This document shows positions 4,157 to 62,679 of a stretch of DNA of 64,000 nt, one piece after another. Location: the NCBI RefSeq assembly GCF_004010195.1, contig NC_057726.1, forward strand, positions 69,885,468 through 69,949,467, in the 5' to 3' direction. The number at the start of each line of letters is the position of its first letter. The stretch's first letter is position 1. This DNA comes from Chiloscyllium plagiosum. Taxonomy: Eukaryota. The notes beneath the pieces were generated by a model that made no database searches, was not told the DNA's origin, and worked only from the letters and a program-made list of their open reading frames with translations. A program made the translations under genes and the position numbers.

Positions 4157-4249
4157 CTTGACCTCTTTCCACCTATCACATTTCCGACGCCCCTCCCCCA
4201 AGTCCCTCCTCCCTATCTTTTATCTTAGCCTGCTGGACAAACTTTCCTC

Positions 4250-15064: not shown

Positions 15065-15512
15065 GGGGAATGTTTCAGACAGAACAGATGATCCATCATC
15101 AAAGGTAGTAAAATGACGTGAAAAATTTCCTGAAACGTCTGAGGCTTTTAGAAAACTGTCTGGAGGACTAAACAAAACATTGGGTGCTGAAGAATGGCCA
15201 TTAGGTGGCTCTAAAGCTGTTCAATTTGTTAAATCGGCTCAGCAATTGATCTGGCAACGGAATATTGCAGCGGGCACGAAAGAGTTAATTGAATTATGGC
15301 GACAGTTTAGTGATGAGAGGCACAAAGAATCAGTTTTGCGCTCAGGACAAGATACTGCCACCAAATTGGTGATTGAACTAACGGCAAATGGTGCTATGAA
15401 ATCGGTTTAAGTTCTTAAAAATGAATGCGCTCGAGCAAAACAATTACAGAAACAGAATGAGAAGTCACAAGTGGCTGGTAAACAAACAGAACAGCGCAAT
15501 TACAGTTTTTAA
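15063..15512 (+). pseudogene. gag: gag N-terminal (matrix-like) remnant
   Basis: MGNVSDRT.. (Gly2 myristoylation-type start) and EEWPLGGS (WPxxGS/T matrix motif); in-frame stops; preceded by (TA)n. Confidence 0.6.
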
Positions 15513-15749
15513 AATGGTTTAGCCACTTGTTGCATTTTCACCCAGAATTACAGATAATGATTATTTTATTTATATAATATATATAATTTATAACTAATAT
15601 TTATAATAAATCAATTGTGTTAGCCTGAATTAATGTTTATTGGCAGGATTCCTTCACACATTCTCAGTGACCTGTTATATTGATTCATGGTTAATTTAAA
15701 ACATGACTGCATTAATTTTTGTTAATTAAAGAATGGAAAGCTACATTAC

Positions 15750-18072
15750 TGGCCAGAGTGTGGCAGGCAATGGCAGCAACAGCCTTCTTGGTAGAGGAGA
15801 GTCGGAAGCTTACTTCAGAGGGTCCTTAATAGTCAGCACCCCACACCAGGTACGAACCATATTAAATCAGAAAGCAGGACGATGGCTCACAGATTGTAGG
15901 ATCTTGAAATATGAGGCAATCTTAATAGAGCAGAATGACCTTGTGTTAGTCACAGACAGTTGCTTTAAATCCAGCTGCATTTCTGTGGCGGGGAGAGGGG
16001 GATGCCCTCGGCAATCCAGAATACGACTGCCTTGATATTATTGAATTACAGACTAAAGTGCGAATGGACTTAAGGGAAATCACGCTGCATGCAGGAGCTT
16101 GGTTGTTTATCGATGGGTCTTCCAAGATTATTGAGGGTAAAAGGCACAATGGATATGCTGTAGTAGAAGGGATAGAGTGAAGCGTTATCAAGGCTGAAAG
16201 ACTGCCTAACAGCTGGTCATCCCAAACCTCTGAACTCTATGCCCTTGAAAGAGCTCTCGGAGCCTTCGAAGACAAGGAAGGAATGGTATATACAGACTCC
16301 AAATGTGCGTTTAGAGTAGTACACACCTTCAGAAAAAATTGGCAAGAAAGTGGACTCATAAACAGCAGAGGAAAATAACTAGCACATGAGAAATTAATAA
16401 AACAAGATGTGGAATTCCTGTTAATCCCAAGAGAAATGGGCAGTACGGTGGCACAGTGGTTAGCACTGCTGCCTCGCAGCGCCAGAGACCTGGTTCAATT
16501 CCTGCCTCAGGCGACTCTCTGGGTGGAGTTTGCACATTCTCCTCGTGTCTGCGTGGGTTTCCTCCGGGTACTCCGGTTTCCTCCCACAATCCAAAAATGT
16601 GCAGGTCAGGTGAATTGGCCACACTAAATTGCCCGGAGTGTCAGGTGAAGGGGTAAATGTAGAAGTATGGGTCTGGGTGGATTACGCTTCAGCGGGTCGG
16701 TGTGGACGTGTTGGGCCGAACGGCCTGTTTCCACACTGTCGTGAATCTAATGGAAATAGCGATAGTTCATATAAACGGACATCAGAAGGGGAATTAACCG
16801 GATGTAAGAGGAAATAAACTGGCCGATGAGGTAGCTAAAGAAGTAGCCCTAAAACCACAAGGAGCAGTGATATACTCCCTAATACCTACAATTCCAGATC
16901 TTCAGGGTGCCGTGTTGTTTCCTGCAAAGGAGGAAAAGGAACTAAAAGATTTAGGGGCAGCAAAGACAGCGGATGGTTGCTGGGTGTTATCCAATGGGAG
17001 GGAAATGCTGAATAAAATGATGATGCAATAAATTATGGCTGTCTTACATCAGGGCATCACTGGGGAGTGCAAGCAATGTGTGATTTAGTCTTAAGGATAT
17101 ATGGATGCAAAGCGATATATACGATAGCCAAACAGATATGTGAGGAATGTATAACATGCAGGAAGTGAAACAAGAAGGTGCTAAGTCAAGAAGTCCCGGG
17201 AGAGAGAGAACCTGGGCGAAGACCATTTCAGAGCATTCAGGTAGATTATACCGAATTACCCCAAGTGGGAAGATTAAGGTATATGCTGGTAATGGGTGAT
17301 CACATATCTGGATGGGTAGAGGAAGTGTACCCTTTAGCCACTGCCACCGCAAGTGGGGTGTCCAAGATAATACTTGAGAATATAACCAACAGATATGGGA
17401 TAGTGGAATGTATAGATTTGGATCAGGGAACTCATTTTACTTCCAGGGTACTCCAGGGAGTGATGAAGGGGTTAGGAGTCTCCTGTGAGTTCCACACCCC
17501 TTGGCACCCACCTTCATGAGGAAAGGTTGAGAGAATGAACCAGACACTCAATAAGCAGTTATCTAAATTAGTAATAGAAACCAGATTCCCTTGGGCTAAA
17601 TGTTTACCTATAGCCCTTTTGCGAGTGCGAACGGCCCCAAGGAAAGATATGGGGCTGTCCCTTTATGAGGTATTGTTTGGCCTGCCCTATCTGGGAACGA
17701 AGGTGAAACTTCCAACCTTGGAGACTAAAGATCTGTTCTTAAAGATGTATACACTGGGCTTGTCATCCTCTTTGTCTATTCGCAGGAAACAGAGTTTGTT
17801 GGCACAGACTCCACCCTTGAATTCACCGTCCTTCCAATCCAACCAGGAGATTGGGTCCCACTCAAATCATGGACTGACACCAAATTGCAACCAGACGGGG
17901 AGGGGCTGTACCAGGCACTTTTAACTACTGAAACAGCGATATGAAACGCAGAGAAAGGCTGGACTCACTACACCCGGATTAAGGGGCCAGTGGATTCTCC
18001 AGTTGGAAGAGATGTCTGAACAACCGAATAGACAAAATAATCCCTTAAACTCAAGCAAAAAATTCCTTAAAT
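15750..18072 (+). pseudogene. pol: pol remnant: RT connection, RNase H and integrase (polymerase core absent)
   Basis: TPHQVRTIL..RWLTDCRILKYEAIL; FIDGSS, YTDSK; HHCC zinc finger; QVDYTE..DLDQGTHFTS..HTPWHPPS*GKVERMN; frameshifts. Confidence 0.92.
16438..16751 (+). mobile_element. HE1-like V-SINE inserted in ERV RNase H
   Basis: gggcagtacggtggcacagtggttagcactgctgcc...tgtttccacactg. Confidence 0.93.
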
Positions 18073-18771
18073 AACTGATTATACTGTAGCGGCATGAGTG
18101 CGGCATAGTTTCTGGAGTATTGTATGCTAAGTCTCTCGGTACTTCAGTCCCATTGTAGTATGAGGGGGATGTTTAGGTACATGATATTAGCATTTCTAGT
18201 CCTAAGATTCTGCCAGGCCCTGGTATGGTCGTCTTACGAAGTGATAACGGTTCCAGAAAGAATAAATCCACAAGTCATAGAAACAGATGCCTGCAGCCTA
18301 GTGGATTGAGCAGATGTTAGAAATCAGAGGCAATACAGTAACTCAGAGATACATCTTAGGTTCCATGAAAGAGGCCCCGGGTGGGGTGGGGGGGGGGGGA
18401 GTGTGCATGGGATAGGTTTTGACGGAAAGAAAGTGTCCCACAGAGAGAAGTGTAATGGATTTCATTGGAAAAAGAATGTAAAGAATGGCGGAGGCAGGAA
18501 GACCTCAAAGGTCATCTCTTGATTAATCCACTCATCACAGTACACCGAGGCCCCTTCCGGCCAGCTGTCGATAAAAAAAAGTGTAACCCAATAAAAAAAA
18601 GTGTAACCAAATATATTTAACCAGAAAGAAAACCTCATGGCAATAAGTGGTTTTGGGGGAGAAATTTTTCAGGTCTAATTAAACCAAACATTCGGAATAG
18701 AGATGAAAGCAGAAGGGAAGGATTTCTTGGGATGTTGTTTGAAAATACAGGTGAAAGACAGGACCCAATTA

Positions 18772-19180
18772 GGCGGCACGGTGGCACAGTGGTTAGCACT
18801 GCTACTTCACAGTGCCGGAGACCCGTGTTCAATTCCTGCCTCAGGCGACTGACTGTGTGGAGTTTGCACGTTCTCCCCGTGTCTGCGTGGGTTTCCTCCG
18901 GGTGAATATTTTTTCGACGAGGTCGTCAATATGATTTTCCAAGGTCCGGACTCGCTGCTCGAGAGGCCGGACCTGATCCACGGCCGATTGAGCGGTATTT
19001 TCGGAGGCCGCTGCCTTTAACTCCGCCCCTCCGACTCGGCGCTCAATTTTTTCCTACTTTAGGTAAGGGGTAAATGTATGTAGGGGTATGGGTGGGTTAC
19101 GCTTCGGGGGGCGGTGTGGACTTGTTGGGCCGAAGGACCTGTTTCCACACTGTAAGCAATCTAATCTAATCTAAAAAAAA
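18772..19180 (+). mobile_element. HE1-like V-SINE in env, central part replaced by foreign sequence (18905-19058)
   Basis: SINE head to ~18904, resumes at ttaggtaagggg ~19059, (AATCT)n tail. Confidence 0.9.
18905..19058 (-). mobile_element. LINE-1-like ORF1 coiled-coil fragment
   Basis: Minus strand reads KIERRVGGAELKAAASENTAQSAVDQVRPLEQRVRTLENHIDDL, then gtcgaaaaaatattc resembling the DDLxNRxRRxNIR junction of L1 ORF1p. Confidence 0.6.
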
Positions 19181-20659
19181 AGTACGAGTAAGGAATAGTA
19201 AAGCCCCTTACTCTGAACCTAAGGTGATAAAAATTGTAGAGATAAAGGACTTAAAGCAGACTATTGAAGTAGAAACAGGATATGGGGATACAAATGCTTG
19301 GGTTGAAACGGTAAAGTACACTGTGAGAAGTTTGAATTTAAAAAAGCAATTGTTTTGCATGTGCCTCTGGGAGACCAATGGCTCAAGCAGTCCCCTTTCC
19401 GCTCGGGTGGAAGCGAGACAGAAGAGGCATTGCATGCATGATAGACCTGTATCAGAATGAGACTGCACACAGTAATGAAGATTGCATGCCACTTCTATTA
19501 ATGTTCCCTCCTTTAAAGAAGGAAGGTTTAAAGACACTCCCCATGTTTTCTGCCGTGGTCGGAAATCACACATCATATAAACAGGCGAGGAACAAATCGG
19601 TCCAGATACTTGGGGGAGCTGAAATCATGCACCGAGATTGAGTACGTGACGGAAAAGGGAGGGAACTGTTCAGCTTTAAGCATTACCCGAGCGGATCTGT
19701 GGTGGTACTGCGGAGGGAAAATATTGAGATCCACCCTACCTCCAGACTGTAGGGACATGTGTGCGATTGTGCAATTGGCAATTCCGTTGACCCTGGCATT
19801 TGAAAAGAAAGAGATAGTAAAGAAAGGGGGATGAAGTCAGAGATCAATACTGGATACGTCGTGTGATGATCGGATATATCCAGATTCTATAGGAGTTCCA
19901 AGAGGGGTACCTGATGAGTTAAGGTTCGTAACCAGATCCCTAGATATGATCCTAGCAGAAAAAGGGGGAGTGTCTGTGATGTTAGGAGGGAGCTGTTGTA
20001 TCTTTATTCCAAATAGCATAGCCCCAGATGGGTTTATTACTCAAGATCTGCAAGGTCTAACAACACTAGCAGAAGAACTAGCTGAAAACTCAGGAGTTAA
20101 CACATCACTCACCTGGTGGCTAGAATTGTGGTTCGGAAAGTGGAAGGGTGTGGTGGTTTCACTCCTTACCTCTTTAATCGTGGTGGTAGGAGTACTGACT
20201 GCAATAGGATGCTGTATCATACCTTGCGCACGAGGGCTAACCCAAAGGCTGTTTGAAACAGCCTTGGCCTCACAAATGCCCCTAAAGAGCAATCGGGCAG
20301 AAGGGCTCTACCTGTTGAACAATGAGGGAATAAGTGACCTCGGGGAGATTTCCAAAATAAATGAAATCTCGGGAAAAATGCTCGCCAACTTGGAGGCGAC
20401 ATGTAAGGAAAATGCAGAAGACAACAAATGTTAATTAAAAAAAGGAAAATTGTGGAATATAGGTTGCTTCTGTGCAATGTTGCTTCTGCAGCCATAATTG
20501 CTTCTGCAAAGTAATGAACTAACTTACACAATTGTATGATTATTTCAACAAAGAGGTGAGTTAGATAAAGCTTGCATATAAACAATGAAATATGTTACAG
20601 ACAAATAGATAAGGAGGGAAAAGAACATTAAGTTATGGTGGTTTGGCATATTGCCTCCA

Positions 20660-37045: not shown

Positions 37046-39504
37046 CAGATGAATGGCAGGTATCTTTTCCCTTGGGTGTGGGATTTCAAGACTAGGGGCA
37101 TATTTTTAACGAGAGAAGACCAACATTTTTTTTAAAAAAAGCACGAGGGACTTTTTTATACAGAGTGGTTCGTCGATGGAATAATGTTTCAGAGAAGTGG
37201 TGGATGGGAATACAGTAATAAGTTTTAAAAGACAATTGGATAAGTACATGAATAAATGTTTGGAGGTATACGGGCTAAGGGTAGGTGGAACGAGTTTAGT
37301 TTGGGAACATGGTGGCATGGACTTGTTGGACCGAATAGTCTGTTTCCGTGCTGCATGACTCTATGACTCTATGCCTAGTTAACAGCTTGAGATGAAATGC
37401 ACTGGTGAAGAACTGCTATCAGATATGCTCGTTTACTTAACGTTTAGTAATCACCAGGATCAGTACAATTGCATCCAGGTATGTCAGAGAATTAATGATG
37501 GTGACTGTTGAGCAATGGCCAAAAGTTCTCCATCTTCCTTAAATATATGACTGGACCAGAGGACTGATGCATCTGGGAATTGAGCCAAGCCTATTGGCGT
37601 TAGGTTGCATTGATAAACAGCTGAACAACCAACTTAGCTCACTGACTCTCAACCTAAGAGACGGGTGAAGTATGTTCCAACCTCCTTTAATTGAATCGAT
37701 ATTAATTCAAGAAACTACAACCTGTGTTGTTCGTTTATCATACAAACAAAAATGGTAGTGAAATTGTCATGATTAGTTGCACATATTTAAAGACCCAATT
37801 TGTTGTCCATCGCTGTTGAGCAATACGCATCACAATAAACTGAAATACTAAAGCATGTATGCAATATTAAAATCATGAAAAGGGCCACTGCCATCAAACT
37901 GAGTACTTGTCATAATTCTCAGAGTTATTCTGTCAGAATGTAGTCTGATATTCTGAAGGAAAACTAGAAAAAGCAACTGGTAATTGATCACTTTGAATGG
38001 GAGTAAATTAAAAATCATTGTTTGAAGAAATGTATATAAAGTAATAATGCAAAATTACAATGAATATACTGGACACAGCTTCCAACCAAACCAAGATGGA
38101 CTACAAAGCTATCACAGATCCAAACTGAAGAGCAAGACACATATGTTCCTTTTAAGGAATGTAATTACCTTCTAGACTGTGAGTAATTTATCCCAATTGG
38201 CTGGTTTGCCTTACAGCGTAATGCTAATAGCATTGGTTCACTTCCTAGACCTAGTTGGGAATTTCTCAATTTCACCCTTGCTGGTGATCCTCAGGATAAA
38301 CCATCACTAGTCATCTCTCTCTCTGTCTCTGTCTGTCGGAGTAGCCTTCTGGGATGATCGTCACTTTATTCTAAGTGCAATCATATGCAGATTGCCACAC
38401 TATTCCTCCAATTTTACTGACTGAAATATCTGCACTTCTGACAGGAGATTCTGTTCAGGACACTATCAGATGTACTTCCATTCTGACAGTTCCTACAGAA
38501 CAGTTCGGGAGAGGATAAACCACGACAAATTTCTCACATCAGTCGGTTGCAGTATTCTATAATTGAAAGTTCTATAAACACGTGAAAGCTCATATGAAAG
38601 GTCAGATATGCGATGTAAGTGTGAGGTTAGGTTGCCAGAATGGTTGGTTTCCCATTCGGTAGGTTATCATATTGATGGTTAAGGTTAGCGGATCAGCTAC
38701 GGTGGGTATCAGATGAGTAATGGTCGGTAAGTGATCAGTCGGATGGCAGATAAGTCGGTTGCAAGGTGGATGGAAGTGTGGGAGTCAGATCTTGTGCTGT
38801 TAGAGCTGTGCCTCGAAGTGGTAGGTGTACTGGATCCCAGAGGTAAGAGGGTAGATGTAGGCTAAGGTTCTTGGTTTCTCGAGAACTGTGTTTGTGTTTG
38901 TGTGTATGCGTTGGTGGGGGATGGGAATGTGTGGACATGGAACAGTTGTGGATGTGTTGTAACTTGTGCATTTGAACGATTATTTTGCTCAGGAATGAGA
39001 TTAGATGTTCAATGGACTAATATTTCCTGAGTTAATATTTACTTAACTGTAGTGGAACCCGATACATTCTCCAAGATAACGTCATATTTTTACAGTGTTC
39101 CAAGCATATTGTAATTTTCAGTGGAATCTTCAATCTTGAAATCTATAATCCTGGGGACTCTACAAGGTCACAAGCTGAAAGTCCCATCTACACTTCAGCA
39201 ACAATTTTCTGGCAAGCAATAACTCCAGGACAAAATGTGATCTATTTGGATAATGGAATGAGATCAAATGGGCATTCTTGTCTTCATCTGTGTGATGCCT
39301 CAAACACTGTACAATGTACATCTATTTCTAAAAATCAACCTTTCTTATTTTTCATAATTAACTACAAGCATTTTCATTTTTCCTATCAAGAATTCAAGTA
39401 CACTAAAAATGCGCTTCTAGGTATCATGTAGTCACATTAACAGAAAAATTGCTACGAAACTGCTGCTTTGAATCTGGACAATAATATTATCTTTTATTTA
39501 ACAG

Positions 39505-40397
39505 TTAACTTGTTGGCGATCGCAATCCTATCTCGCAGAAGCTGTGGACTCTCCAAAAGTGTCAATCATTACCTGGTGGCCATGGCAGTGACAGATCTTC
39601 TGGTTGTCATCTCTGATGTAATGTTGAGATGGCTTATCATTTACTTTCCAGTTTCTTTCCTGGATATTACTCCTGTATGTAGTTTGGTTGCAGTGCTTAT
39701 TATTGGCACCACAGTCTGTTCAGTTTGGCTCACAGTTGCTTTCACCTTTGATCGATTTGTGGCTATTTGTTGTAAGAAACTCAGAGCAAAATACTGCACT
39801 GAGAAAACAACGCTCATAGTTATTGGAACAGTAAGTGTGTTGGGCTGTTTGGAAAGTATTCCCTGGTTTGTGAAATACAGAGCTAAATACACCTTCAATA
39901 ACCTGGAGTGGTTTTGCATCACAAAACCAGAATATTACACTTCAATCTTCTGGGCAGCATATGAACTTCTGCATCGTTTTCTAACCCCTTTAGTACCATT
40001 CCTTTTGATAGTTCTCTTTAACATTCTGACAGTCAGGCACATTTTCATGGCAAGTAAAGCCCGCAGAAGACTCCGGGTGAAAACTGAAAGGGAAGGTCCG
40101 AGTGACCCAGAGATGGAAAGGCGCAGAAAGTCCGTCATTTTACTCTTCGCTATCTCAGGCAGTTTCATCCTGTTATGGACGACTTATGTTTCATGCTTCA
40201 TCCATCAGCGAATTGCATTCATGTACAAGTTATCTCCTCCTTCACGTATCATGGGTACCATTGGATACCTGCTCCAGCTCCTCAGTACCTGCACAAATAC
40301 TTGCATCTACACAGTGACCCAGAGTCAATTCCGAGAGCAGTTAAAAACAATGGTGACATATCCCTTCCATTTGATTCTCAGAGCTATCAATCTCTGA
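39505..40397 (+). CDS. GPCR exon 2: class A (rhodopsin-like) 7TM receptor, GPR139/GPR142-like family; spliced product ~325 aa, intact
   Basis: Acceptor tttaacag|; NLLAIAILSR..YLVAMAVTDLLVV (TM2), SVWLTVAFTFDRFVAICC (TM3), TPLVPF (TM5), RRKSVILLFAISGSFILLW (TM6), TCTNTCIY..FREQL (TM7/H8). Confidence 0.92.
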
Positions 40398-43923: not shown

Positions 43924-45027
43924 TCACCAAGTAGTCTTTCAAACGTCTTCAGACTGATAAATTCATTTTTATAGTTGTGCACTTGTAAGTTTTTGATAGC
44001 TCACTCAAAAAATGCATTCATGACAATAAAAATCCACAATGCACAATGTGCACAGTTTAGATTGCTATATGAAAACAATACACATATGTACTGAAAATAT
44101 TGCTTAGGCATTTATCAATGCACTTTCTTCAAATGTGAATTGATTTCTTTTGGCAATTTCATTCTCACATCAATAAAGATAACTTTATTTTTCATTATTC
44201 AGAGACATTCATGAGTCATGACATTGTTTCCTACTATATCATACTATAACAAGATTGCAACGTCAATAGTGGAGCATCAAGGATGGAGCATCAGTCTGCA
44301 CTGTCTCGGCAGAGTGCCACTCTACATGGAATGTACGATAAGAATAAAATTTGAACAACAAACTGTCAATTATTAACTTAAGTGAAATAACCAAACAAAG
44401 TAAACCATCAAAATATGAGGCAGAGTAGCAATTACATCTCTTTCACTCTCTGGATACGGAAAAATCAAAATGATCATTCTCAAAGCAAGGGGACAGGCTG
44501 GATTAAAACAAGTGCCGCAATGAAAGCAAAATGAAAGATAATCTTGTGCCAGTAAAGACAATGAAACACAAACAAGTTAAGGACAATTAACCAACAGAAA
44601 CCTTGTGAACATTTGTCACAGTAAAGCCCATCATTTCTAAGTTAAAATGCAATGATTGGACAACGGGAATGAAAATATCGGTATTACCCTGTGTTACAAG
44701 TACAAGCGGAATTATAGTGAATATGTGACAGTGTACAACCACATAAAAATGTTCAATAATAACTTCAATACTAATATGTCTAACTTCGTACAGATTTAAA
44801 AGAAAGAAGGAGATCTTTAACTGTTAGAAATAATTGAGTTGTGATTTTTAGTGGTAACTGTTGCAATAATTTTAAAGCTGAAATCAAGCAGAAATTAATG
44901 CACAGTTTTGCAAAATTACTATCGATTTATATGAGGAAAATAACACCTTAAAGTTGATAAGCAACATAAACATCTCTGTGATACAATCTTTGCATCTATC
45001 CTTTGAGCATATTTTCATTTGCCACAT

Positions 45028-45156
45028 TTAGTGGCTGTTTTTCACTGCTGCACATACTGGACTGATTTCTTGGCGCTTGAGTTTCGATGAAGTACTGGAA
45101 TCATTGAATTTCAAAGCAAGGTGAGTTAGTTTGCTGTCTGTCATGCTCTGCTTTGT
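45028..45156 (-). CDS. IgSF receptor last cytoplasmic exon with two degenerate ITIM-like motifs
   Basis: gttttcag| TKQSMTDSKLTHLALKFNDSSTSSKLKRQEISPVCAAVKNSH*. Confidence 0.7.
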   Translation of the reverse strand, partial: TKQSMTDSKLTHLALKFNDSSTSSKLKRQEISPVCAAVKNSH

Positions 45157-45274
45157 CTGAAAACACAGCCTGGAGACAAAATTAGTGCTCATTTAAATCG
45201 TCCTCGATGAAAATTTCACAAAGCAGTTTACAACATCATTTTGAAATCAACTCGTGTTGATGATTATTTACACA

Positions 45275-45918
45275 AGAGTCTTAGGTAGATAGAATAGTGA
45301 AGAAGGTATTTAGTATGCTTTCCTTTATTGTCAGAGCATTGAGTATAGCAGTTAGGAAGTCATGTTGCGTCTGTACAGAACATTAGTAAGACCACTTTTG
45401 GAATGTTGTGTGCAATTCTGGTCTTCCTCCTATAGGAAGGATGGTGTGAAAGTTGAGATTCAGAAAAGATCGACAAGAATGTTGCCAGATTTGGAGGAAT
45501 TAGCTATAGGGAGAGGCTGAATAGCTTGGGGTGTTTTCCCTGGAGTGTTGGAGGCTGAGGGGTGACCTTATAGAGGTTTATCAAATCATGAGAGTCATGG
45601 TTTGGGTAAATAGATACGGTCTTTTGCCTGGGTTGGGGGAGTCCAGAACTAGAGAGCATAGTTTTAGGATGAGAAGGTAAAGATGTAAAAGAGACATAAG
45701 GGGCAACTTTTTAATGCAAAGGATGGTGCATGTACGGAATGAGCTGCCAGAGGAAGTGGTGGAGGCAAATGCAATTACATGAATAGAAAGGGTTTAGAGG
45801 GATATCGGCAAAGTGCTGGCAAATGGGACTATATTAATTTAGGATATCTAGTCAGCATGTACGAGTAGGACAAAAGGATCTGTTTCCGTGGTGTAGATCT
45901 CTATGACTCTATATGACC
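45275..45918 (+). mobile_element. CR1 LINE 3' end in IgSF intron
   Basis: LYRTLVRPLLECCVQFWS, RLRGDLIEVY, tail ctctatgactctatatga. Confidence 0.85.
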
Positions 45919-47824
45919 TGAAATGAACCTCTGCATACATTGTGATTTCTTCTCGCTGTTTAGGAATTATACCATACTTAGACCCAACTAGATTGAGAGC
46001 AGGGTATGTCAGCTTATCCTCAGGCATCTCTCGTTTTCTCTAGAAAGTCAAGATTTAGCATTCATTAGATTATTTTATATTGCAGTCAAGACACAAGCAT
46101 ACATTCTTAACATGGGCAATTAGTTTGTTGGACTGACTTTGCTTACTCTTCATTACAACCATAATAGTTTGCAGTTTCTCACTCTGAACCGTTTCTTGCC
46201 AAGAATATCACACCACATCACAAAAAGCAAACATTATGTTTCAATTTTACTAATATTAATAGAGTTTTAATTTAAAGTCACTAAGGATATTTTGCAATAA
46301 TGCAGTGTTTTGAAGAAAAAGTTGCATGCATTAGTTTAATTTAATTAGGTTTTTGAATTCTGACAAGTGATTTTCTGTTTTAATACATTCTGCTACAGAT
46401 TGAGCATGCAGTGCAGCAATGAAGCAAAAATACATGTGTTTGTTAATAATGATAAAAAATAATCACAGGTAACATTGCTTTAAAGTAAAAGTATGGGAGG
46501 CAATTACTTGAAATAAATTAGTAACGGCTTTCATTTGGACGGTATATGGGGCAGGATTTGACTGAACATACCCTGATATTAACTTAATTAAGTTAGCACA
46601 ATGAGAGAAAAATAAGAACTGTACTTACCATTGACAATAGAAAATTAATTACCGCCCTTTTGAGTAAAGGAAGGTAATTATTTCAATAGTTCAGTTCAAC
46701 AGTAATAAATAAAGCACTGAAGTCTGAAGAGCATTTTCAAAGAATTCATAAGGTATACTTAATGCCAGACGGTATGTTTTAAAGTAAATTATTGATGTTT
46801 TAGGTTAGAACATGGGTCAACTATTTAGGGAAGAACGTGTTCAGGTTGGTGACAATGAAAGAAATGCAACAACCGGGTATATTCTTGTCGAAAAAGTAAA
46901 CCACAAAATTTCGGTGATCAAAAAAGGTACTTTTGACCTGCTGTGCAGTATTCCTCAATCATAGATAATTTTCTGTCCGCTTGAAACAATAAAACACAGG
47001 ATAAGCATTGCATCTGCACATCATTCTGCTACCTACAACAGTTCAGCTGGGATATTTCACAGCAAGAAGTGCAATAATGGAGTAAAGCTTTCTGAAGACG
47101 TCAAGAAAGGAATTTCATTTTTGCTGTACCTGCAGTACAGAGGTGAATCGATTCTACATGACTTACAATTTTTACTGGGATGTAAACCTCAGTGGCAAGG
47201 TCAATATTCTCTGCCAATAACTGCTTACCATTAACAGTCCAGTTGCAAACCAGCTTCTTGGCTTACTGGTGTCCAGGTAATTTAGGTACATTGTTGTCAA
47301 GGAGGGAGTCCCAGGTACTAGATGTATTGAAAGATCAGGCTTTTTTGCATATTAAATTCAAGGATGTAGAATCAAACATATTTTAAAAACCAAATTCAAA
47401 TCCAGGCCTACAATTGAGATGATAAATCTGCTGAATTCAATTAAAGACTCTAACAGCTTTGAAAATATATTTAAAGGGATTAAATCTGCTGGTTGAATGC
47501 ATTCAGTTGCAGTCAAGAATCAATAAGTGTCATTGAATTGTGTCCTCTGGAGTTGGCACATGGGCTTCAAGTTTGGCCCAAATGTTCTCGGTTATTCCTG
47601 AATATGTCTCCGCTTCTTTTCAGTTGCCACACATAGGGAGGCTCCTCTCACATTTCATTGATTTTAAAAATTAAAAATGAAAGCAGTTTGCATCACAACA
47701 ACTCATCTATTTCTATTTCAAGACAACATTTTGCTGCAGCGCATTGCAGTAGCAGAGAAGCAGCCTCCAGTAAAACTTGTAGAAGGAAGCCAACTTGTTC
47801 AAGCTGCCTGCATAATATATTTAG

Positions 47825-48045
47825 AAGAAAGTAAGGACTGCAGATACTGGAGAGTCAGAGTCCAAAAGGGTGGCACTGGAAAAGGACAGCGGGTCAGACA
47901 GCATCCAAGGAGCAGGTGAGTTGACGTTTCGGGCATAAGCCCTTCTATCCTTCTTAATGAAGGCATAACGTTTGAAATATCTACTCACCTGCTCCTCGGA
48001 TGCTGCCTGATCTGCTGTGCTTTTCCAGTGTCATCCTTTTCAACG
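47825..48045. mobile_element. Mini fold-back of two inverted PLE termini
   Basis: cactggaaaaggacagcgggtcagacagcatccaaggagcaggtgagt is inverted to actcacctgctcctcggatgctgcctgatctgctgtgcttttccagtg; partial hammerheads at the centre. Confidence 0.75.
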
Positions 48046-48617
48046 ATACATAATATTTTCAGTTCTTTGGTACAGGCAATGGTAGAAGTCAGGCAGAACC
48101 ACTGATCTCAGCTTAATATATGAGTTAAGTTTGAACAGTAAAGAAATAAAAGGAAGAACAATCATCTCGATTTGTAAATTTTTAAAAAAGTATCATTCAA
48201 AAAGCCAATGTAATATTACGTCTGTAATCAACATGGTAAAATTATTTAGTATATTGTCACTTGTTAAGTATGAAAGAAAAGAAAAATCATAGCTATTTCC
48301 CAGCTGCAAATCTATGATTGATGGTTAAATATATTATCACAAGTTAACTAATACAGCTTACACGTTTATGAACAAGTTTGACTGTTGAAAATAGTTGCAA
48401 CGGTTTGGGAAACTGCCTACCATTTTCTATTTTCTTGAGTTTTGTTTTTATTCAACTGAATTTGTGCTTTTGAGAGCTGATGAAATCTTCAAGACCTATC
48501 TTGATATGTTAGGTGTGTGTGTGTGTATATATAATATATAATATTTGTGTTCCCAGTTTAAATTTTTCAACTCGACTTCACAATTAAAATAGACAGAATA
48601 AAAGAAATTTGTCTCAC

Positions 48618-48664
48618 CACATCTTCATGCTGAGTTGGATTTATTGTTTTTTTCTCTCGCCCTC
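48618..48664 (-). CDS. IgSF receptor short cytoplasmic exon
   Basis: GGREKKTINPTQHEDV; tttatttctcag| and |GTGAGA; converts phase 1 to phase 0. Confidence 0.7.
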
Positions 48665-49036
48665 CTGAGAAATAAAAATGACATGAGCCGACAATAAAAA
48701 AGGATGATACTTGGACTCATCAGAAACCAAAGGCAATTGTAAACAGGTTACAATAGGACCAACAGTTTTACAATGTAGCTCTAGACATTACACACAGATG
48801 CTTTGAATTTATGTCTTGAGGGTTGAAGCAATGGAAATTTCTTTCAGCAATGTGCTTCACTATGACGATTCTGATCTACATCTTAGCAAACTGAAACTGC
48901 AAACGTTCTTATTTTAGATTTGATGTGAATCAGGTTTGAAAAAAGTTTCACGTAAAATAGTTGTTTAAATTGTGCAGTTTAGAAATGAGCTCCCAATTAT
49001 ATTAATTTCAATGGGACATTTCATTCCTGTACATAC

Positions 49037-49150
49037 CTTTAGTTTTATAGAACAGAAAACCCTTGGCAATCATCACGGCCAATATTAGAATTGCAAGTGC
49101 ACCAGCAGCACAACCAGCCACCATTGGAACACTGATTTTCGAGGCAAAAT
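49037..49150 (-). CDS. IgSF receptor transmembrane exon
   Basis: DFASKISVPMVAGCAAGALAILILAVMIAKGFLFYKTK; ttacag| and G|GTATGT, 114 nt. Confidence 0.85.
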
Positions 49151-50010
49151 CTGTAACATTAATATAAATTCAAAATTAGAAATTGCAATATAAACTGAAG
49201 AAATGCAGTTTTAAATATCATAAGGATCATTTTTAATTGTACTGCCTTGGAAAAATGATAAATATAGTACATAAAGGCTGAGCATTTCAATTTTGTTGTC
49301 TCTTTATTTATCTGATTGCTATGCAACTGGAAACAAAATGTCTGGAATTTAGAGGAACAGGTAAATGATAAAGGTGTCTCGAGTAATGACAAATTTAAAA
49401 TGAATGGAACCAGCACTACTTATAACAAGTGCTCAGTTTTCTAAGCTATGTTGCAAAATAATAAAGTATTTGTTGAGAGTTTAATTGGATTGCATGCAGA
49501 TCAAAGTCAGAAAAAAATATAATGGAGCCTGTTTTCAGATTTGTTTGAATTGCTTGTGGAGGTGAAGTTCAGCTAAACTAATTCTAATCTCCACAGCTAC
49601 GACCCAATCAGCTATGAATCTGTCTTGAGTATTTAATCAAGCATGTGACTCTCTGATCATTGGAAAAATAAGCTGGAGCTAACATGATTGGAGGTAAATG
49701 GAAAACTTAAATTCGATATTATCCATTCTTCCTCAAGAAGTAGCATCAAACTTTCAGTCCTTTGTGAGTAGTCAGTCTATACATGAAAAAAATTATTTGA
49801 CCTATGGTAAATAGTTTTGGTCAGGTCACATGTGAGAACTATATATCAATTCCAAACAACACAAAGGAAGAAAACTTGAATCCATTAAATGGGGTCAAAT
49901 TTTGATTTTGACATAACCACATATAATAACTTTCATAACTATTTCCTACTTATTTGTCTATTTTGAAACATATATGAGCATTTAATGTACAACATATTAT
50001 AAAATGTTAC

Positions 50011-50316
50011 CTTTATTCGTAATAGTGTAGCTGGCATTTACAGGAAATGAGCTTGAAACATGATATACTTGACACATGTAAACTGTGCCGCTTTGAATGG
50101 CCTCTCGCAACTCTAAGGAACTGATGACTTTATAAAGATCCTCAGTTTTTGCTTGTTGTTCATTCCTAAATCCTGTCAAGATGTTTATCCCATTTTTGTG
50201 CCAAGTAAGGCTAAAGGCTTTTGGGTAAAAGTCAGACGTTCTGCACTGGAGTCTGAGAGAAGCAGAAAAATGGTCTTCAGATGGCACAGAGACAATTTTC
50301 AAAGGGGCTGGTGAAG
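50011..50316 (-). CDS. IgSF receptor C1-set exon
   Basis: LRLQCRTSDFYPKAFSLTWHKNG..YKVISSLEL..YMCQVYH; ttccattcag| acceptor, G|GTAAC donor, 306 nt. Confidence 0.9.
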
Positions 50317-50769
50317 CTGAATGGAAAATAACACAGACTGGGTAAGTCAACTTTTCATCTTCTGCAAAAATGTACTTGTTAAGTGACCAAAACAACATAC
50401 TTCCAGCATGCCAGTTGCATGAATTTTTTTATGGACAGCACTTGAAAATAACGTTACATTTATCACATTAAAATATCCTAAAATCCTTTCAAAATATCTT
50501 CTGCGTTTATAGGAAAATGAGTTTTCAGGCTTTGTCCTGACTTAATAATAAGAATACAATAGAATCATTAAAGTGCACCTTTCTTTGCAAACATGATGAT
50601 GAATTTGACCTGGATACTGGGAATTTAGCAAAAACCATCCAAGTGATGGGACTGAGGATTTGGCTGTTCCCATGAGTTAAGGGACATCGAAAATGCATAA
50701 TATTGCAGATATTCATCCTGTCCCTCTGGGTTCAAATGCAAAACAAAATACATTAAAGTATTTCAATGA

Positions 50770-51590
50770 ATATCTCTGCAAAAGCCAATTGCAAAAATCG
50801 GAACCAACCCATGACCAAATGCAGCAAGAATTGTTTGAAAGTAACATTCATGCAACACAAATGCCAGGTAAACACTATCTCCAAGAACAGACAATCTAAC
50901 TATCAACGCTTGATATTCAATGGAATCACTATCAGTGAATCCCCAACTATTGACATTTTGGGGGTTACCACTGAGCAGAAACTGAACTGGGTTAGCCATA
51001 TAAATAGAACCGTATGTCAGAGACTAGGAATACTGCAACAAGTAACTCAGCTGCTGACTCCCCAAAACCTGTGCAGCATTTACAAGCCACAGGAGAGGGG
51101 TGTGTTGGAATGCTCCCAACTTGCCTGTATACCTGCAGGTCCAGGAGCACTCAAGACGTTTGACACCATCCGCTTAAAAAGCTGCCCACTTTATTGGCAC
51201 TGCAGTCAGTCACTCCACCACAGACACTCAGTAGCAGCAGTGTATACCATCAAGATTTACTGCAGAAATTCATCAAAGATCCTGAGAAAATACCTACAAA
51301 ACCCAAAAGCACTAACATCTAGAAGGGCAAGGGCAGCATGTCTATGAGAACACCACCATCTGCAAGTCTCTCCCAAACCACTCAACATTCTGACATGGAA
51401 GCACATCAATATTCCTTCACAATCACTGGGTCAAAATCTTGTAAATGTCTCCAAAATAGCATTTTGGGCTATTTGCAGCACATGGACTGCAGCGATTTTA
51501 TGCAGCTCCCCACCACTTTGTCAAGAGCAACTAGGGACAGTCAATAAATGCTGGACCAGCTAGCAACACCCATGTCCCAGAAGTGTTTTT
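50770..51590 (+). mobile_element. CR1/L2-superclade LINE 3' end (different family), decayed
   Basis: IDILGVT.EQKLNWVSHI..QRLGILQQV..SIYKPQ.RGVLE; 3' tail caataaatgctggaccagctagcaacacccatgtccc. Confidence 0.75.
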
Positions 51591-51750
51591 TAAATACATA
51601 GCAGATCAGAAAATTTGTAGTGCCAGTGGTTTTCCAAGGTTTCAATATTCTTGAACATATTTCATTTTAAATAAGTGCAATTATTTAACACTATTTGTCC
51701 AAATCTAATAATTGTTGTTTGTTTTTATCTTTTTCTGAGGTGATATTTAC

Positions 51751-52060
51751 CATAAACAGTAAGCTGTACATTAGTTTCTTTCCCAATCGTTCGCTGTTCG
51801 GACTTGACTGCACAGATATATGTTCCAGCGTCCTGGACAGTCACATTCAGAAGATTAAAATAGGCTGCTCCTTTAACTATACGGAAGAACTTTCTGCTAT
51901 CCTCCTGCAGAAAGGTCTTATCACCTTCTCTCCACCAGTAAGCGATAACATTTGAATGATCGATTTGGTAGGAGAAATAGCATGATAGCTGTTGAACCTC
52001 TCTGCGCCGTTATCAGTTTAAGATCCGGCTTCACTTTGGCTGAAATACCCCCAGCAGTAC
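51751..52060 (-). CDS. IgSF receptor V-set exon (frameshifted)
   Basis: GTAGGISAKVKPDLKLITAQRGSTA /shift/ SCYFSYQIDHSNVIAYWWREGDKTFLQEDSRKFFRIVKGAAYFNLLNVTVQDAGTYICAVKSEQRTIGKETNVQLTVY: B-strand C, C-strand W, DxGxYxC. Confidence 0.85.
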
Positions 52061-52354
52061 CTGTCAACCAAGGATGCACACCGAGATTAAACAGAAAAAC
52101 GGTCTGCACCACCCAAATAACATCATTATTCCACACTATTGATGCAATAGCATTTTACCGTATTTAATGTTCGACTAATTCTCCAATTTTTTAAACTATT
52201 GTCTGAAATAAATGTCATATTTTCTTCCCACAAACGCAGTAAATGAATTCTGTGAACATTTGACTTGACAAAAAAACAACATTAATACATTTTATCGTTT
52301 TTTTAAATCCAGATTAACTTTAAATTACATTGTGTCTTGATTATGAACAGTTAA

Positions 52355-53926
52355 TACACAGCAAACGAAATATGTACCTGCACACAAGATGCACCGCAGA
52401 CAGACATCCCATAGTGAACAATCCTTAGACATACTGGCAGGAAAAATATGAGACCATCAGTTGTGACTGAGATCAGGATAGACAAATGCCTCTTAAACGT
52501 TGCTCTTTGTCCCTCATTGAACCACATATATGCGTGTGAGTCAATGAGCACATGACTATTTGTTCAATGAGTGAATAAAAAATCATGCCTTTCCAAATAA
52601 GATCCGCTCTTTTTGTGACGGGAAACCACCACAAAACATTATGACATTCGAGAGAGTACACTGAAGGTATTCTGGAAGCAGTTGCTGCAACCTAAAAATG
52701 TGGCTGAGAAACGATTGGATGGAATGATACATTTGCCACTGAAATTGGGATGCACAAAACTGAGGTAGGCTGAGAAATTATGGATGGGGAAGAGATCCTT
52801 AGCCTTCATTTTGAGGTCAGTGATTGGTGGATATAGATTTAAAAAGATTGGAAGAAAAGCTTAAGGGGAGATGACGAAACAGTTTATCCCAGAGTGTGGT
52901 AGCTATCTAAATTCTCTGGTCTGAAAGAATATTACAGGCAGACAACTTTGACTCTTTCACAAGTTATTTTTGTTTGGATGTGCACTTGAAGTGCTGCAAT
53001 CTGCAATGCTTCGCACTAAATCCTCCATAGTATGATTTGTTGTGTTGGCCTTTTGTTTGGCTGGTTTTGCTGGTTTGCTTTTGGTTTTCAGCGTTGTTAA
53101 CATTTTAAAACAAAATCATTTTATGAAGCAGCCCACTGTAATTGTAGCAATTTGAAGTGCATGAAGACAAAACTACTGCTAAACTCTGTATTGCAAGCAC
53201 GAAAACAGGGCACAATGATAAACCTCTCACTGCTGTTTTGTAAAAAACTGAGCAGCAATGTCAGATAAATCTGCTAAAATTCCATTTCTTATTACTTTTT
53301 CGGCTCTACATATTAGTATCATGTCTTTGACATTATTTCTCTCAATCTATGTGCAGGCTTTTCTCAATTATTCTTGGCTATGTAACCCGGCGGCACGGTG
53401 GCACAGTGGTTAGCACTGCTGCCTCACAGCGCCAAAGACCTGGGTTCAATTCCCGACTCAGGCAACTGACTGTGTGGAGTTTGCACATTCTCCCCGTGTC
53501 TGCGTGGGTTTCCTCCGGGTGCTCCGGTTTCCTCCCACAGTCACAAAGATTAGGTGAATTGGCCATGCTAAATTGCCCGTAGTGTTAGGTTAAAGGGGTG
53601 AATGTAGGGGTATGGGTGGGTTGCGCTTCGGCGGGTCGGTGTGGACTTGTTGGGCTGAAGGGCCTGTTTCCACACTGTAAGTAATCTAATCAAACCCCTT
53701 TTCACCAATCACTCTCAAATGAAGATATTCACGACTTTACCAAGGACTAGAAAAACACCAGACTGGTGTAAGCCATATTCTAGGAGTTATAAAATAACTG
53801 ATATTGATCACAAATTTAAAATTGAGAAGTGCTTGATCTGCTTGTTGGATTAGTGTGTTAAATTACAAATCTAATTCTTGTAATTTGTGACATTGTTTCT
53901 TTAACTGATGTGACATACAAGCTGAT
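52355..53926 (+). repeat. Segmental duplication, copy B (with extra SINE)
   Basis: Matches 40520-41785. Confidence 0.95.
53389..53692 (+). mobile_element. HE1-like V-SINE inserted after the duplication
   Basis: Absent from copy A (tatgtaacccctttt); aaccc flanks both sides here. Confidence 0.95.
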
Positions 53927-54574
53927 TATTCAATGATCGTTTTCCCCCTTATTGTTCTGGAGCTTCTGCAGCCTTCTTTCCTATGTTCTGCATTAATTTT
54001 GTCAAGAAAATGTCTCATCATGAGGAAACCGCATTGAGTATTATCTGTCTCGGGAATCCATCAATTCCATAACAATACAAGGATCCTGGAAAAGGGATGA
54101 ATTTGGGAATTAGCAATTGTGATCCGTTTTGCACAGAGATGTTAAGAAGTATATTTATCATGATATGAATGTTTTCAGTTTAAAGCTATAACAGATGCAC
54201 TATTAATATGTGTTATTCATATTCATTCACTGTCTGTGAATCCCTATTAATCACTATCTAGATTAGTTATTTCATTCTGAAGTGCTCTGATAATTTAAGA
54301 GAATATGTTTGCTGATCAAATGTGCTATTTTGTCCTGGGCAATACCATTCTCCAGAGTTGTGTTGCAGCTGCTGTCATCCAGGTAATGGCAAGTGGAAAT
54401 GTTCCATAAAAATATGTAATTGTACTCCTTGGATAGAAGGCAGACATTCCTGAGACATGATATGGATCACCCCACGTTAGAACAGTGATCTTCTGAGTTG
54501 CTCCTGGATCCAAATTACCTATCCCTTTCCTAGTAGCACATTGGATGGGCCTGAACTACACTGACTGCACGAGA

Positions 54575-59499: not shown

Positions 59500-61379
59500 T
59501 TCCTTTAAGCTTCACCCCCAAAATTCGCAAGCATCATTCCTGAGACTTCATCCATCTTGGTCTCACTCATCCCCTCATTATTTAAGAGATAAAGTTCCTC
59601 TGCCTGATTCCTTTTTAGGGGTATCTGTTTCATTAAGTCATTGGTTGAACCTTTGTATACAGGGCATGATGCAACAGCCAATGGCCACCAATACCCCAGC
59701 TACTATTATTAGAGAAGTAAGGATGGAGATCACCACCCCCTTCCATTTTCCAAACCATAATTCAAGCCATCCCGTGAGAGATGTGTCTACTTCTGAATTT
59801 TCAGCCAGTTCCTCTGCTAAGGTAGAAAATCCCCTTAAGGTCCGATTAATTGAACCATTAGGTGCAGTGTTATTAGGAATAAAAGTACAACAGCTTCTTC
59901 CTAACGTCACACACACACACACACACCTTTCCCGCTAAAATCATATCAAGGGCCATTCTGTTTTCCTATACCATCCTACCTGTCGCATCAAGCTGTTCTG
60001 ATATTCCTTTAACCGTATCTCTTCTATAATTTATAAATCGCTGTTGATTATAGAAAATGTAATTTGTCCAATCTACATTTTTATTAACTGTTACCCACCA
60101 AAAGAGAGCTGACTCAAAGCCTGCTGCAAGCTGGTTGCGAGCCTTGAACTCATCAGGTACCCCACTAGGGACTCCTATAGATTCGAGATAAATCCTGTCA
60201 TCGAAAGAAGTACCTAACAGTGATCGCTTACTCCTTCCTTTTTTCCCTACTATCTTTTCCTTCTCAAATGCCAGGGTAAATGGAATTGCCAATTGTACAA
60301 TTACACATATCCCTCTCCAATCTGGAGGTAGGGTTGGTCTCAATACTTTGCCTCCACAGTACCACCACAGATCCACTCAGGGAACCTTCAGTGCTGAGTA
60401 GTTATCCTTATCCTTTTCGGTGACATTCTTAACTTCTGTACATAATTTCTGCTCCCCCAAGTCTCTAGACGATTTGGACCTTGCCTATGTACTCACGACG
60501 CGTGATTTCCGATTGTGGCTGAACACATGGGTGGAAGTGGTGCTGTTCAGTCTTCCTTCTCTTAGGGAGGGATCATCAGAGATAGGGAGGTGCAGTTCCT
60601 ATCATTCCATGCAGTCTCATCCTGATACAGGGCTATCATACATTCCTGTCTCGCTTCCATCCGAGCAGAAAGGGGACAACCTGGGCCACTGGTCTACTGG
60701 AGGCACATGCATCACAATTGCTTTTATTCAAACTTTCTATTGTGTACTTTACCCATTCTACCCAAGCATTTGTATCTCCGTAGTCAGTTTCTATTTTGAT
60801 GGTCTATTTCAAGTCCTTCACCACTGTAATTTTTACCACTTTAGGGTCATCGGGAGGGGTGAACGGTTGTATCTTATTATCCAGTTGTTCTGCCTGTTTT
60901 CCCTTTCCTTCGCTAATTCGAGAACAAAAGCCCGAGAAATCATTCCCGTTTGTTTACATTTCTATCCCAAATGTTTCATTTGATTGTATCCGATAGGTGC
61001 CCCCCAGCCCCTCCCACTCCCCACCCCCCCACAGAGTTGTTTCGTGCCTTGTGGTTTTCTTTATCATTAGGTGTATTGGGTTACACTTTTTATCGGGACA
61101 ATCGAAAGCTGCTTGGAAGGGGGCCCGGTGTACTGTGATGAGACCATTATACCAAGTATCATCCCCAAGGCCATTCCCGTAGGAGTTAAGATGTACCTCT
61201 GAGCTGTGGTGCTGTCTTTGATTATCTCTATCCCCACGATTTACTAAGCTGCATGTATCGGCATCTATTACTTGCAGATTATCAGACTTAGGGACCGTTA
61301 ATAACACATATGAAGACAATGTTTGACAAAATCCCAATAATAAGAGAACTAGTATCATAACCTTAAGCATCCCCAACAT
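59500..61379 (-). pseudogene. env: env pseudogene, copy 2
   Basis: MLGMLKVMILVLLLLGFCQT signal; DLWWYCGG; furin site RSKR; GVPDEFKARNQLAAGFESALFWWV..NQQRFIN; ENRMALDMIL; CVTLGRSCC; TM helix; multiple frameshifts. Confidence 0.92.
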
Positions 61380-61469
61380 TCTTAAAATCGTGCTGAAGCA
61401 CCGAGAGACTTAATATACAATCCCATAGAAATAATCCCGCGCTCACGTCGCCACTGTATAATCGGTTAC

Positions 61470-62185
61470 TCAAAGTCTCTTTAGCCTGAGTTTCAGTGGT
61501 TCTTGTGTTGATTCGGCTGTCCAGACTTCTTCCTCAACTGGAGATTCCACTGGCCCTTTGATCCGAGTGTAGTGAGTCCATTCCTTTCCCCGCCATTCTT
61601 ATCACTGTTTCAGTGGTCAAAAGAGCCTGATACGGCCCTTCCCAGTCCAGTTGCAATTTAGTCTCTGTCCATGATTTTACTAAGACCCAATCTCCCTGTG
61701 AAATCAGATGAACAGCAAATTCAAGGGGCGGAGTCTGTGCCAATAAACCCTGTTTCCTGAGGAAAGACAAAGAGGAGGACAGGCCCAGTATATAGTTCTT
61801 TAAGAACACGTCTTTACTTTCGGGAATTGGCAGTGGCCAGAGGATATGCCTCCACCCATCCGGATAAATGATCAGCTATTACCAACGTATACCTCAGTCT
61901 TCCTACTCTGGGTAGTTCAGTATAATCTACTTGTATACTCTGGAAGGGTCGCAATCCCAGGTTTCTTCCTCCCGGGACTTGTTTCCTTAACACTTTCTTA
62001 TTTACTTTTATTTTGCACGTTATGCATCCCTCACATATCTGTTTGGCTATCATATATATCCCTTTGCATCCATATTTCCTTAAGACATTACTTGCACTCC
62101 CCAGTGGCTCCCCTGATGTAAGTTTCCGACTATCCTCTACCAATAGGGCTGTTGCTGCCATTGCCTGCACACACGCTGACCAGTA
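61470..62185 (-). pseudogene. pol: pol remnants (connection fused to integrase N-terminus, then integrase C-terminus)
   Basis: AMAATALLVEDSRKLT|..CEGCITC..QVDYTE..DHLSGWVEAYP|..GDWVLVKSW..WEGPYQALLTT. Confidence 0.9.
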
Positions 62186-62679
62186 ATGTAGCTTTCCATT
62201 CTTTAATTAACAATGAATTAATGCAGTCATGATTTAAATTAACCATGAATCAATATGACAGGTCACTGAGAACGTGTAAAGGATTCCTGCCAATTAATAT
62301 TGATTCAGGCGAACACAATCGATTATTATAAATATTATATAATACATATATATTAATTATATACATATATATTATATAAATAAAATACTCATTATCTGTA
62401 ATCCAGAGTGGAAACGCAACAAATGACTAAAACATTTTTAAAACTGTAGTTGCACAGTTCTGTTTGTTTACCAGTCACTTGTGACTTCCCATTCTCTTTC
62501 TGTAATTGTTTTGATCGAGTACATTCATTTTCAAGAACCTCAACAGGTTTCATAGCACCATTTGCAGTTAATTCAATCCCCAACTTGGTGGCGGTATTCT
62601 GTCATGAGCGCAAAACTGATTCTTCATGCCTCTCATCACAAAACTGTTGCCATAATCCAATTAACTCTTTCGTTCCCGC

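Follow-up and report, generated by a model that had tools for sequence, protein, structure and literature searches.

Loss of two of the four tail tyrosines in a shark V-C1-TM receptor gene with a segregating V-exon frameshift

The window, meaning the whole stretch of 64,000 nucleotides that was analysed, holds a gene of seven exons on the minus strand; its exon map runs from a leader through the V, C1, transmembrane (TM) and cytoplasmic exons to two tail exons, A and B (Table 1). The terminal coding exon, exon B, from which the original prediction started, is genuine. It translates as TKQSMTDSKLTHLALKFNDSSTSSKLKRQEISPVCAAVKNSH* and is 72.5% identical over 40 aa to protein P0004 of the zebra shark, Stegostoma tigrinum (E 1.6e-10). 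A V-set domain, one C1-set domain and a TM segment, each on an exon of its own according to Pfam and the exon map, are the make-up of shark V-C1-TM receptors with Tyr-repeat tails, and the gene is a member of this family, which stands in the databases under automatic names. Among named proteins, the nearest are from carpet sharks (Rhincodon, Hemiscyllium and Stegostoma; 81-86% C1 identity) and are automatically called, for example, PTPNS1-like or SIRPB1-like. In the hydrophobic core of the leader, the window gene has an Arg where zebra-shark P0003 has a Leu. Two further exon candidates were rejected: a leader at 53776-53741, which contains an in-frame TAG and matches nothing in relatives (the true leader lies at 52432-52378), and a small exon near 46980, which has a stop in phase and corresponds to no segment of the relatives. 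A protein search using exon A alone gave no candidate. A literature search that included bamboo shark likewise returned no description of a shark V-C1-TM Tyr-repeat family in the portions of the sources available, and supplements could name the cluster. Within such portions, V-C1 refers to UrIg2 in PMC12227049, and SIRP and ITIM are absent from the main text of PMC7677710.

Table 1. Exons of the window gene, sequence changes within them and adjoining features, in window positions
Feature	Position	Strand	Details
Leader (signal peptide) exon	52432-52378 (55 nt, phase 1)	-	MSKDCSLWDVCLRCILCA; GTACAT donor; 11/18 identical to P0003 N-terminus
V-set Ig exon	52060-51751 (310 nt in assembly, 315 nt in intact allele)	-	Frameshifted; Pfam V-set 5.9e-07
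5-nt deletion site, B-strand Cys-Pro codons	51976-51977	-	5-nt gap relative to 69.12 Mb paralogue; segregating
Premature stop, codon 65 of assembled allele	51923-51921	-	Exon frame test
C1-set Ig exon, intact	50316-50011	-	Pfam C1-set 6.4e-12; 81-82/101 residues identical to P0003 and P0004
TM exon, Lys near end (MIAKGFLFY)	49150-49037	-	Lys also in P0002, P0003, P0004, P0006 and P0021
First cytoplasmic exon, without Tyr	48664-48618 (47 nt)	-	AG/GT ends, phase 1-0; 11/15 identical to P0003
Tail exon A	46039-45929 (111 nt)	-	73.7% identical to P0004 367-404, E 1.9e-12; reads RKREMPEDKLTYPALNLVGSKYGIIPKQREEITMYAE
High-copy repeat insertion, ~640 nt	45275-45911	.	Alignment; summed contig depth 1e5-1e6
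Tail exon B, terminal coding exon	45156-45028 (129 nt, phase 0)	-	Behind TTTCAG; 72.5% identical to P0004 403-442
Y>H (TAC>CAC), third motif LTHLAL	45123-45121	-	P0004, paralogues and X15 contig have Tyr; V-intact X7 shares the His
Y>C (TAT>TGT), fourth motif PVCAAV	45054-45052	-	Tyr in P0004, in 69.129, 69.090 and 69.321 Mb paralogues, and in X10 and X15 contigs
Orphan duplicate of upstream region plus leader exon (52354-53931)	41789-40518	-	blastn self-match, 95% identical

The orphan duplicate of the leader region reads MSKGCSLWNVCLRCILCA with an intact donor and lacks the SINE found at 53394-53694; no match to the V exon follows its leader. Head to head with it lies an intronless frame of the rhodopsin GPCR family at 39441-40397 on the plus strand (Pfam 7tm_1, 8e-23), whose first Met is residue 48 of the open frame, so that its 5' end may be spliced or lost. 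Inspection of the open reading frame listings by eye also found two endogenous-retrovirus-like remnants, both broken and containing fragments that resemble integrase and env, at about 15100-20450 (plus strand) and 59600-62200 (minus strand), and by-eye inspection found a LINE reverse-transcriptase-like open frame of 632 codons at 11921-13816 (plus strand). An assembly gap lies at about 3420-4170, and the window contains 754 N.

The original prediction held that both ITIM tyrosines of the tail had been replaced, and this proved wrong, since tail exon A, located between 48618 and 45156, keeps two tyrosines, so that two of four are lost. The first of these lies in LTYPAL (TAC, 46006-46004), with Pro at pY+1, and the second in TMYAE (TAT, 45937-45935), next to the donor GAG|GTTCAT, giving TMYAE|T when spliced; the donor position follows from the P0004 junction TVYAE|TKH. 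Two zebra shark proteins, P0004 and P0006, splice exon A in frame, after the cytoplasmic exon and ahead of exon B, and in P0004 all four motifs are intact (LTYAAL, TVYAET, LTYLAL and PVYAAV). Exon A is homologous to exon B, with an alignment score of 30 that was equalled by only one of 2000 shuffles, and the tail is built of repeat units of about 38 aa with two Tyr motifs per unit, as in the family. A family tail HMM scores exon A at 59.8 bits (exon A being in the HMM seed) and exon B at 38.6 bits. The same HMM finds 73 repeat units among 165 proteins, with Tyr at 71/72 and 63/64 aligned positions, counts that are biased by the preference of the HMM for Tyr and by the use of annotated protein models; none of 72 family units has Pro at pY+1.

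Exon A has drifted in other ways as well: 28 of 37 residues are identical to P0004, with several of the departures outside the motifs. The second motif has Thr at +3 when spliced and is thus non-canonical in the ancestor too. The ITIM consensus S/I/V/L-x-Y-x-x-I/V/L is still matched in the tail by LTYPAL, and the distal two motifs no longer fit it. The Pro of LTYPAL is not the medium non-polar pY+1 residue of SHP-1 docking, and in the available portion of PMC8631942 a PD-1 mutant with Pro at this position (G224P) did not support SHP1 recruitment. Exon A also contains a new, lineage-specific Tyr at 45976-45974 (minus strand), where the window gene has SKYGII and relatives have SEDGIM; the new motif fits the ITIM consensus, probably by chance.

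The two replacements in exon B stand as originally described. The ancestral forms of LTHLAL and PVCAAV are LTYLAL and PVYAAV, each one base away, both changes being transitions, and Tyr is present in P0004, in paralogues of the same genome and in a contig of a related species. The paralogue at 69.129 Mb on C17 keeps both tyrosines of exon B (TAC and TAT), as does the one at 69.090 Mb (LTYVAL and PLYAVL). Contig X15 of organism C differs from the window by G>A at 45123 and C>T at 45053, restoring TAC and TAT, at a depth of 4.1 at which single letters could be errors; contig X10 of organism B has TAT at 45053 and ends short of 45123. The finding of Tyr at both positions in paralogues and relatives runs against the possibility that the family never had tyrosines there. 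On these alignments, the exon B losses are real and recent. The exon itself has neither indel nor stop, and its frame and acceptor are intact. In X10, one contig of depth 7.7 has a 1-nt insertion behind 45071. The X15 contig, from one study, stops without a loose end at 45157, which is the exon B acceptor; if the contig derives from RNA, which is a guess, this would be a weak hint that the acceptor is used. Run X9 gave no contig over exon B, an absence that does not bear on expression.

Six codon differences separating X15 from the window are listed. Two affect the Tyr codons; a further three, namely K/T, P/L and a silent change, are assigned to organism C by polarisation, and the sixth is silent with ambiguous polarity. 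Among the listed differences, polarised with P0004, a paralogue and X10, both amino-acid changes on the window branch in exon B (2/2) therefore fall at Tyr codons; four of the 16 differences of the X15 contig lie outside this set. Simulated random substitutions lost both tyrosines in 0.07% (k=2), 0.2% (k=3), 1.0% (k=6) and 1.8% (k=8) of cases. The enrichment at Tyr codons is nominally unusual, at a p value of about 0.001-0.02 for a double event that was chosen post hoc within a large scan.

Intact splice sites and reading frame had been claimed for the whole gene; this holds for the C1, TM and first cytoplasmic exons and for the tail and fails for the gene, because the V exon is frameshifted. 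Comparison with the 69.12 Mb paralogue and P0002 shows 5 nt missing from the V exon where the first Ig cysteine is encoded, and tblastn matches of P0002-P0004 to this exon split into two frames. The deletion segregates among the four sequencing runs of organism A: two (X1 and X3, from one study) carry it, with contigs that span the site without the five letters, and two (X5 and X7, from another study) have an intact V exon, with contigs that contain five extra letters and are about 98-99% identical to the window. Absence of the deletion from two of four runs means that the gene is not a fixed pseudogene. When the listed X5/X7 differences are combined with the other exons of the reference, the V-intact allele has 358 open codons. 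Skipping of the V exon stays in frame and gives a 253-aa C1-TM form, the only rescue found. The V-intact contigs were considered as products of the 69.12 Mb paralogue, an origin that was rejected, as they show 7-13 differences from the window over 695-777 nt versus 76 mismatches for the paralogue. No copy in the assembly is closer to them, and they could come from an unassembled near-duplicate. One contig of X5 that covers the end of the C1 exon probably does represent the 69.12 Mb paralogue and was excluded. X7 also matches the window at the His codon (0 differences over 45068-45160); its contigs leave the Cys site uncovered (45047-45067), and His and the intact V exon occur in the same run, unphased.

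A search with the C1 exon gave 62 matches, most of them on C17 at 61.5-62.3 and 68.9-70.7 Mb, placing the gene in a tandem cluster. All five nearest paralogues lack a complete tail (5/5, tail and V searches). In the 69.12 Mb paralogue, stops or frameshifts affect the V, C1, TM and tail exons alike; in those at 69.32, 70.685 and 70.70 Mb, V is interrupted by stops and the tail by deletions or frameshifts. The 69.078 Mb paralogue (G000:C17:69076900-69090700, L039-L041) differs in having open V, C1 and TM frames; its tail exon A is interrupted by a TGA before the first Tyr, all four tail Tyr codons are present, and it is a candidate for a tail-less receptor or an NMD target. Tyr codons are altered in broken copies too, with Y1>F at 69.128 Mb, Y2>C at 69.321 Mb and Y4 TAT>TGT at both 70.685 and 70.70 Mb; the occurrence of Tyr transitions in dead paralogues argues that such transitions do arise by decay. 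More distant cluster members have intact Tyr pairs. Elsewhere in the family, single tyrosines have been lost from P0021 (LMNASL) and P0051 (TEHAQL), and zebra-shark P0003 has lost its distal Tyr pair by frameshift. In a pairwise comparison with the dead 69.12 Mb paralogue, dN/dS is 0.37 both for V plus C1 and for TM plus tail. At least one of the two branches, likely that of the window gene, was thus under purifying selection for most of the time since duplication, as judged from these ratios.

The closest model for the ancestral receptor is P0004, which carries the automatic NCBI name 'tyrosine-protein phosphatase non-receptor type substrate 1-like'. It shares the V-C1-TM organization, the TM Lys and the same two tail exons with the window gene, at 55-80% identity varying by exon. 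Unlike P0004, with its four intact motifs and open frame, the window gene has the Y>H and Y>C changes, an A>P change at pY+1 and the segregating V frameshift. The TM Lys noted originally is present; adaptor pairing through it, which had been left open, is not favoured, since the Lys is shared with P0004, a protein with all four tyrosines, and so is not a newly gained pairing residue. Coupling to DAP12 would involve a charged TM residue gained with loss of the tail, and here the Lys is ancestral, occurring in ITIM-intact P0004 and P0006. Its presence in ITIM-intact relatives argues that it does not mark a switch to activation.

Among better-known systems, the mammalian SIRP-alpha and SIRP-gamma paired receptors also combine a V-set and C1-set ectodomain with a Tyr-motif tail, and the window gene would work in the manner of four-Tyr inhibitory receptors of the SIRP-alpha type. 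The mammalian SIRP family has inhibitory, activating and short-tailed members with one V-set and two C1-set domains, according to the portion of PMC12975943 available, and a table in the available part of PMC13262535 puts the family under Tetrapoda. The window gene differs from mammalian SIRPs in having a single C1 exon between V and TM, not two, and therefore lacks the V-C1-C1 order; SIRP-gamma, moreover, is non-inhibitory through a short tail and the window gene would be so through point loss of Tyr. Against PDB, P0004 gives weak and similar matches to CD276 (1.3e-16), SIRP-alpha (2wng, 7.8e-14) and B7-H6 (3e-12), so that these matches do not establish orthology with SIRP. Another parallel is provided by SIGLEC12, a human inhibitory receptor with a segregating null, in which a function-killing point change is accompanied by a polymorphic frameshift. 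The combination of a point change and a polymorphic frameshift in one immune receptor gene is the same in both cases. The point change of SIGLEC12 affects ligand binding, whereas those of the window gene are in the tail tyrosines, and the ectodomains are unrelated.

The ancestral receptor is predicted to have been inhibitory, with four Tyr motifs on two tandem repeat exons, and by analogy with ITIM biology it would have recruited SHP-1/SHP-2 through phosphorylated LTYAAL, LTYLAL and PVYAAV. We consider it somewhat probable (roughly 55%) that the window gene is a recently relaxed, dying copy of such a receptor within a birth-and-death cluster. On this reading the tail would have been released from constraint in the recent past, with the Tyr transitions and the frameshift as steps of one decay. 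The assembled allele, with its stop at codon 65, would likely be subject to NMD and yield no full-length receptor; the V-intact allele (358 aa when completed with the tail of the reference) would signal weakly, because only LTYPAL, with its Pro at pY+1, and the non-canonical TMYAET are left. Decay is supported by the V frameshift in the assembly, X1 and X3, by the lack of a complete tail in the five nearest paralogues, by the departures of exon A from P0004 outside the motifs, and by the single Tyr losses in other family proteins. Tail erosion together with a polymorphic null is typical of paired-receptor clusters. If this reading is correct, the locus is an ordinary birth-and-death snapshot in a little-described shark receptor cluster, and the annotation is corrected as well: it gains an overlooked exon, a four-Tyr tail and a null allele that is polymorphic. 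Several observations sit less easily with decay: the only two listed window-branch amino-acid changes in exon B are the Tyr losses, Pro at pY+1 is otherwise missing from the family units, the frame and acceptor of exon B are intact, and the dN/dS of 0.37 in both the ectodomain and the TM plus tail argues that the gene worked until recently. In addition, the His in V-intact run X7, unphased as it is, implies that the tail change is not merely a consequence of the frameshift.

Some of these observations lend weight to a tentative alternative, in which silencing was selected: the V-intact allele would be expressed as a weakly signalling or non-signalling receptor, loss of the inhibitory signal being favoured, for example, where a receptor is exploited by a pathogen, and the null created by the V frameshift would have come later or in parallel. 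On this account the concentration of exon B changes at Tyr codons (p 0.0007-0.018) is expected, and if the Pro at pY+1 is counted, which in PD-1 failed to support SHP1 recruitment (PMC8631942, portion available), none of the three motifs whose +3 residue is canonical or near-canonical has escaped damage. The His codon is found in a V-intact individual, and in a second paralogue, that at 69.078 Mb, the V, C1 and TM frames are open and a stop precedes the first Tyr. However, the enrichment test was post hoc in a large scan, two tyrosines are retained, the identical Y4>C change is found in paralogues that are plainly dead, the Cys site is uncovered in X7, and an Arg lies within the hydrophobic core of the leader. 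A more specific version, which we regard as doubtful, places the gene in mid-conversion: under selection, two point changes would have removed the distal ITIM tyrosines and the Pro would have blunted the proximal ITIM, leaving an expressed decoy on V-intact haplotypes beside a segregating null. The original prediction, conversion to a decoy rather than random decay, is not established, given that the extra exon keeps two tyrosines (at 46006 and 45937, so that the tail is not free of Tyr signalling motifs), that the assembled allele is null, and that paralogue tails were lost by ordinary decay; a decoy ectodomain is broken at V in the assembly, X1 and X3 and intact in X5 and X7. Were mid-conversion true, the gene would represent a 'less is more' trajectory, driven by pathogens, within a paired-receptor cluster of a cartilaginous fish, with the second tail-less paralogue in parallel; selected silencing in general would make it a population-level case, in a cartilaginous fish, of the stepwise switching off of an inhibitory receptor. 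A direct test is possible, because V-intact and null alleles both occur in sequenced animals.

The exon B changes would need no selection if that exon were no longer translated. The exon A donor may have been weakened (GTACAT>GTTCAT), with read-through giving ...TMYAEVHFRSYRVIEIYTTETDPFVLLVHAD* and the old last exon drifting freely; the product, with an ITIM (LTYPAL) and a perfect ITSM (TMYAEV), would still be an inhibitory receptor. At donor position +3 the window has T where the five aligned paralogues have A (one also lacks the +1 G), the read-through frame stays open for another 26 codons before ending within the repeat, TMYAEV fits the ITSM consensus TxYxxV/I (PMC8631942, in the portion available), and an AATAAA lies at 45329 inside the insertion. 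The ~640-nt repeat adjoins the exon A donor and is common to the 69.129 Mb paralogue and absent in three others. Read-through is nevertheless unlikely: free drift leaves a change confined to Tyr codons unexplained, exon B is free of indels and stops, and the weakness of the donor is deduced from its letters. A possible alternative in-frame junction joins a donor after 45918 (GT after TTCAG, 45917-45912) to a window-specific AG at 45171-45170, 13 nt upstream of the exon B acceptor, to give TMYAEVHFRLCFQ..., and it could retain TMYAEV. Finally, an assembly or sequencing error behind the His and Cys codons or the frameshift is very improbable. Nothing positive points to one beyond the setting, an assembly of about 102,000 contigs with a near-duplicate cluster; against it, X7 matches the His codon as noted above, in X1, covered at a mean depth of 22.7 across 44900-45153, C>T is absent throughout and neither of two G>A changes falls at the site in question, and the X1 and X3 contigs cross the deletion site gap-free.

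Over window positions 44900-52500, the X3 contigs of the gene have a depth of about 3, versus 10-30 for paralogue-like contigs, and the X3 haplotype is 0.4-1.1% from the assembly yet carries the same V deletion. This pattern hints at an old allele on several backgrounds, at copy-number variation, or at pooling.
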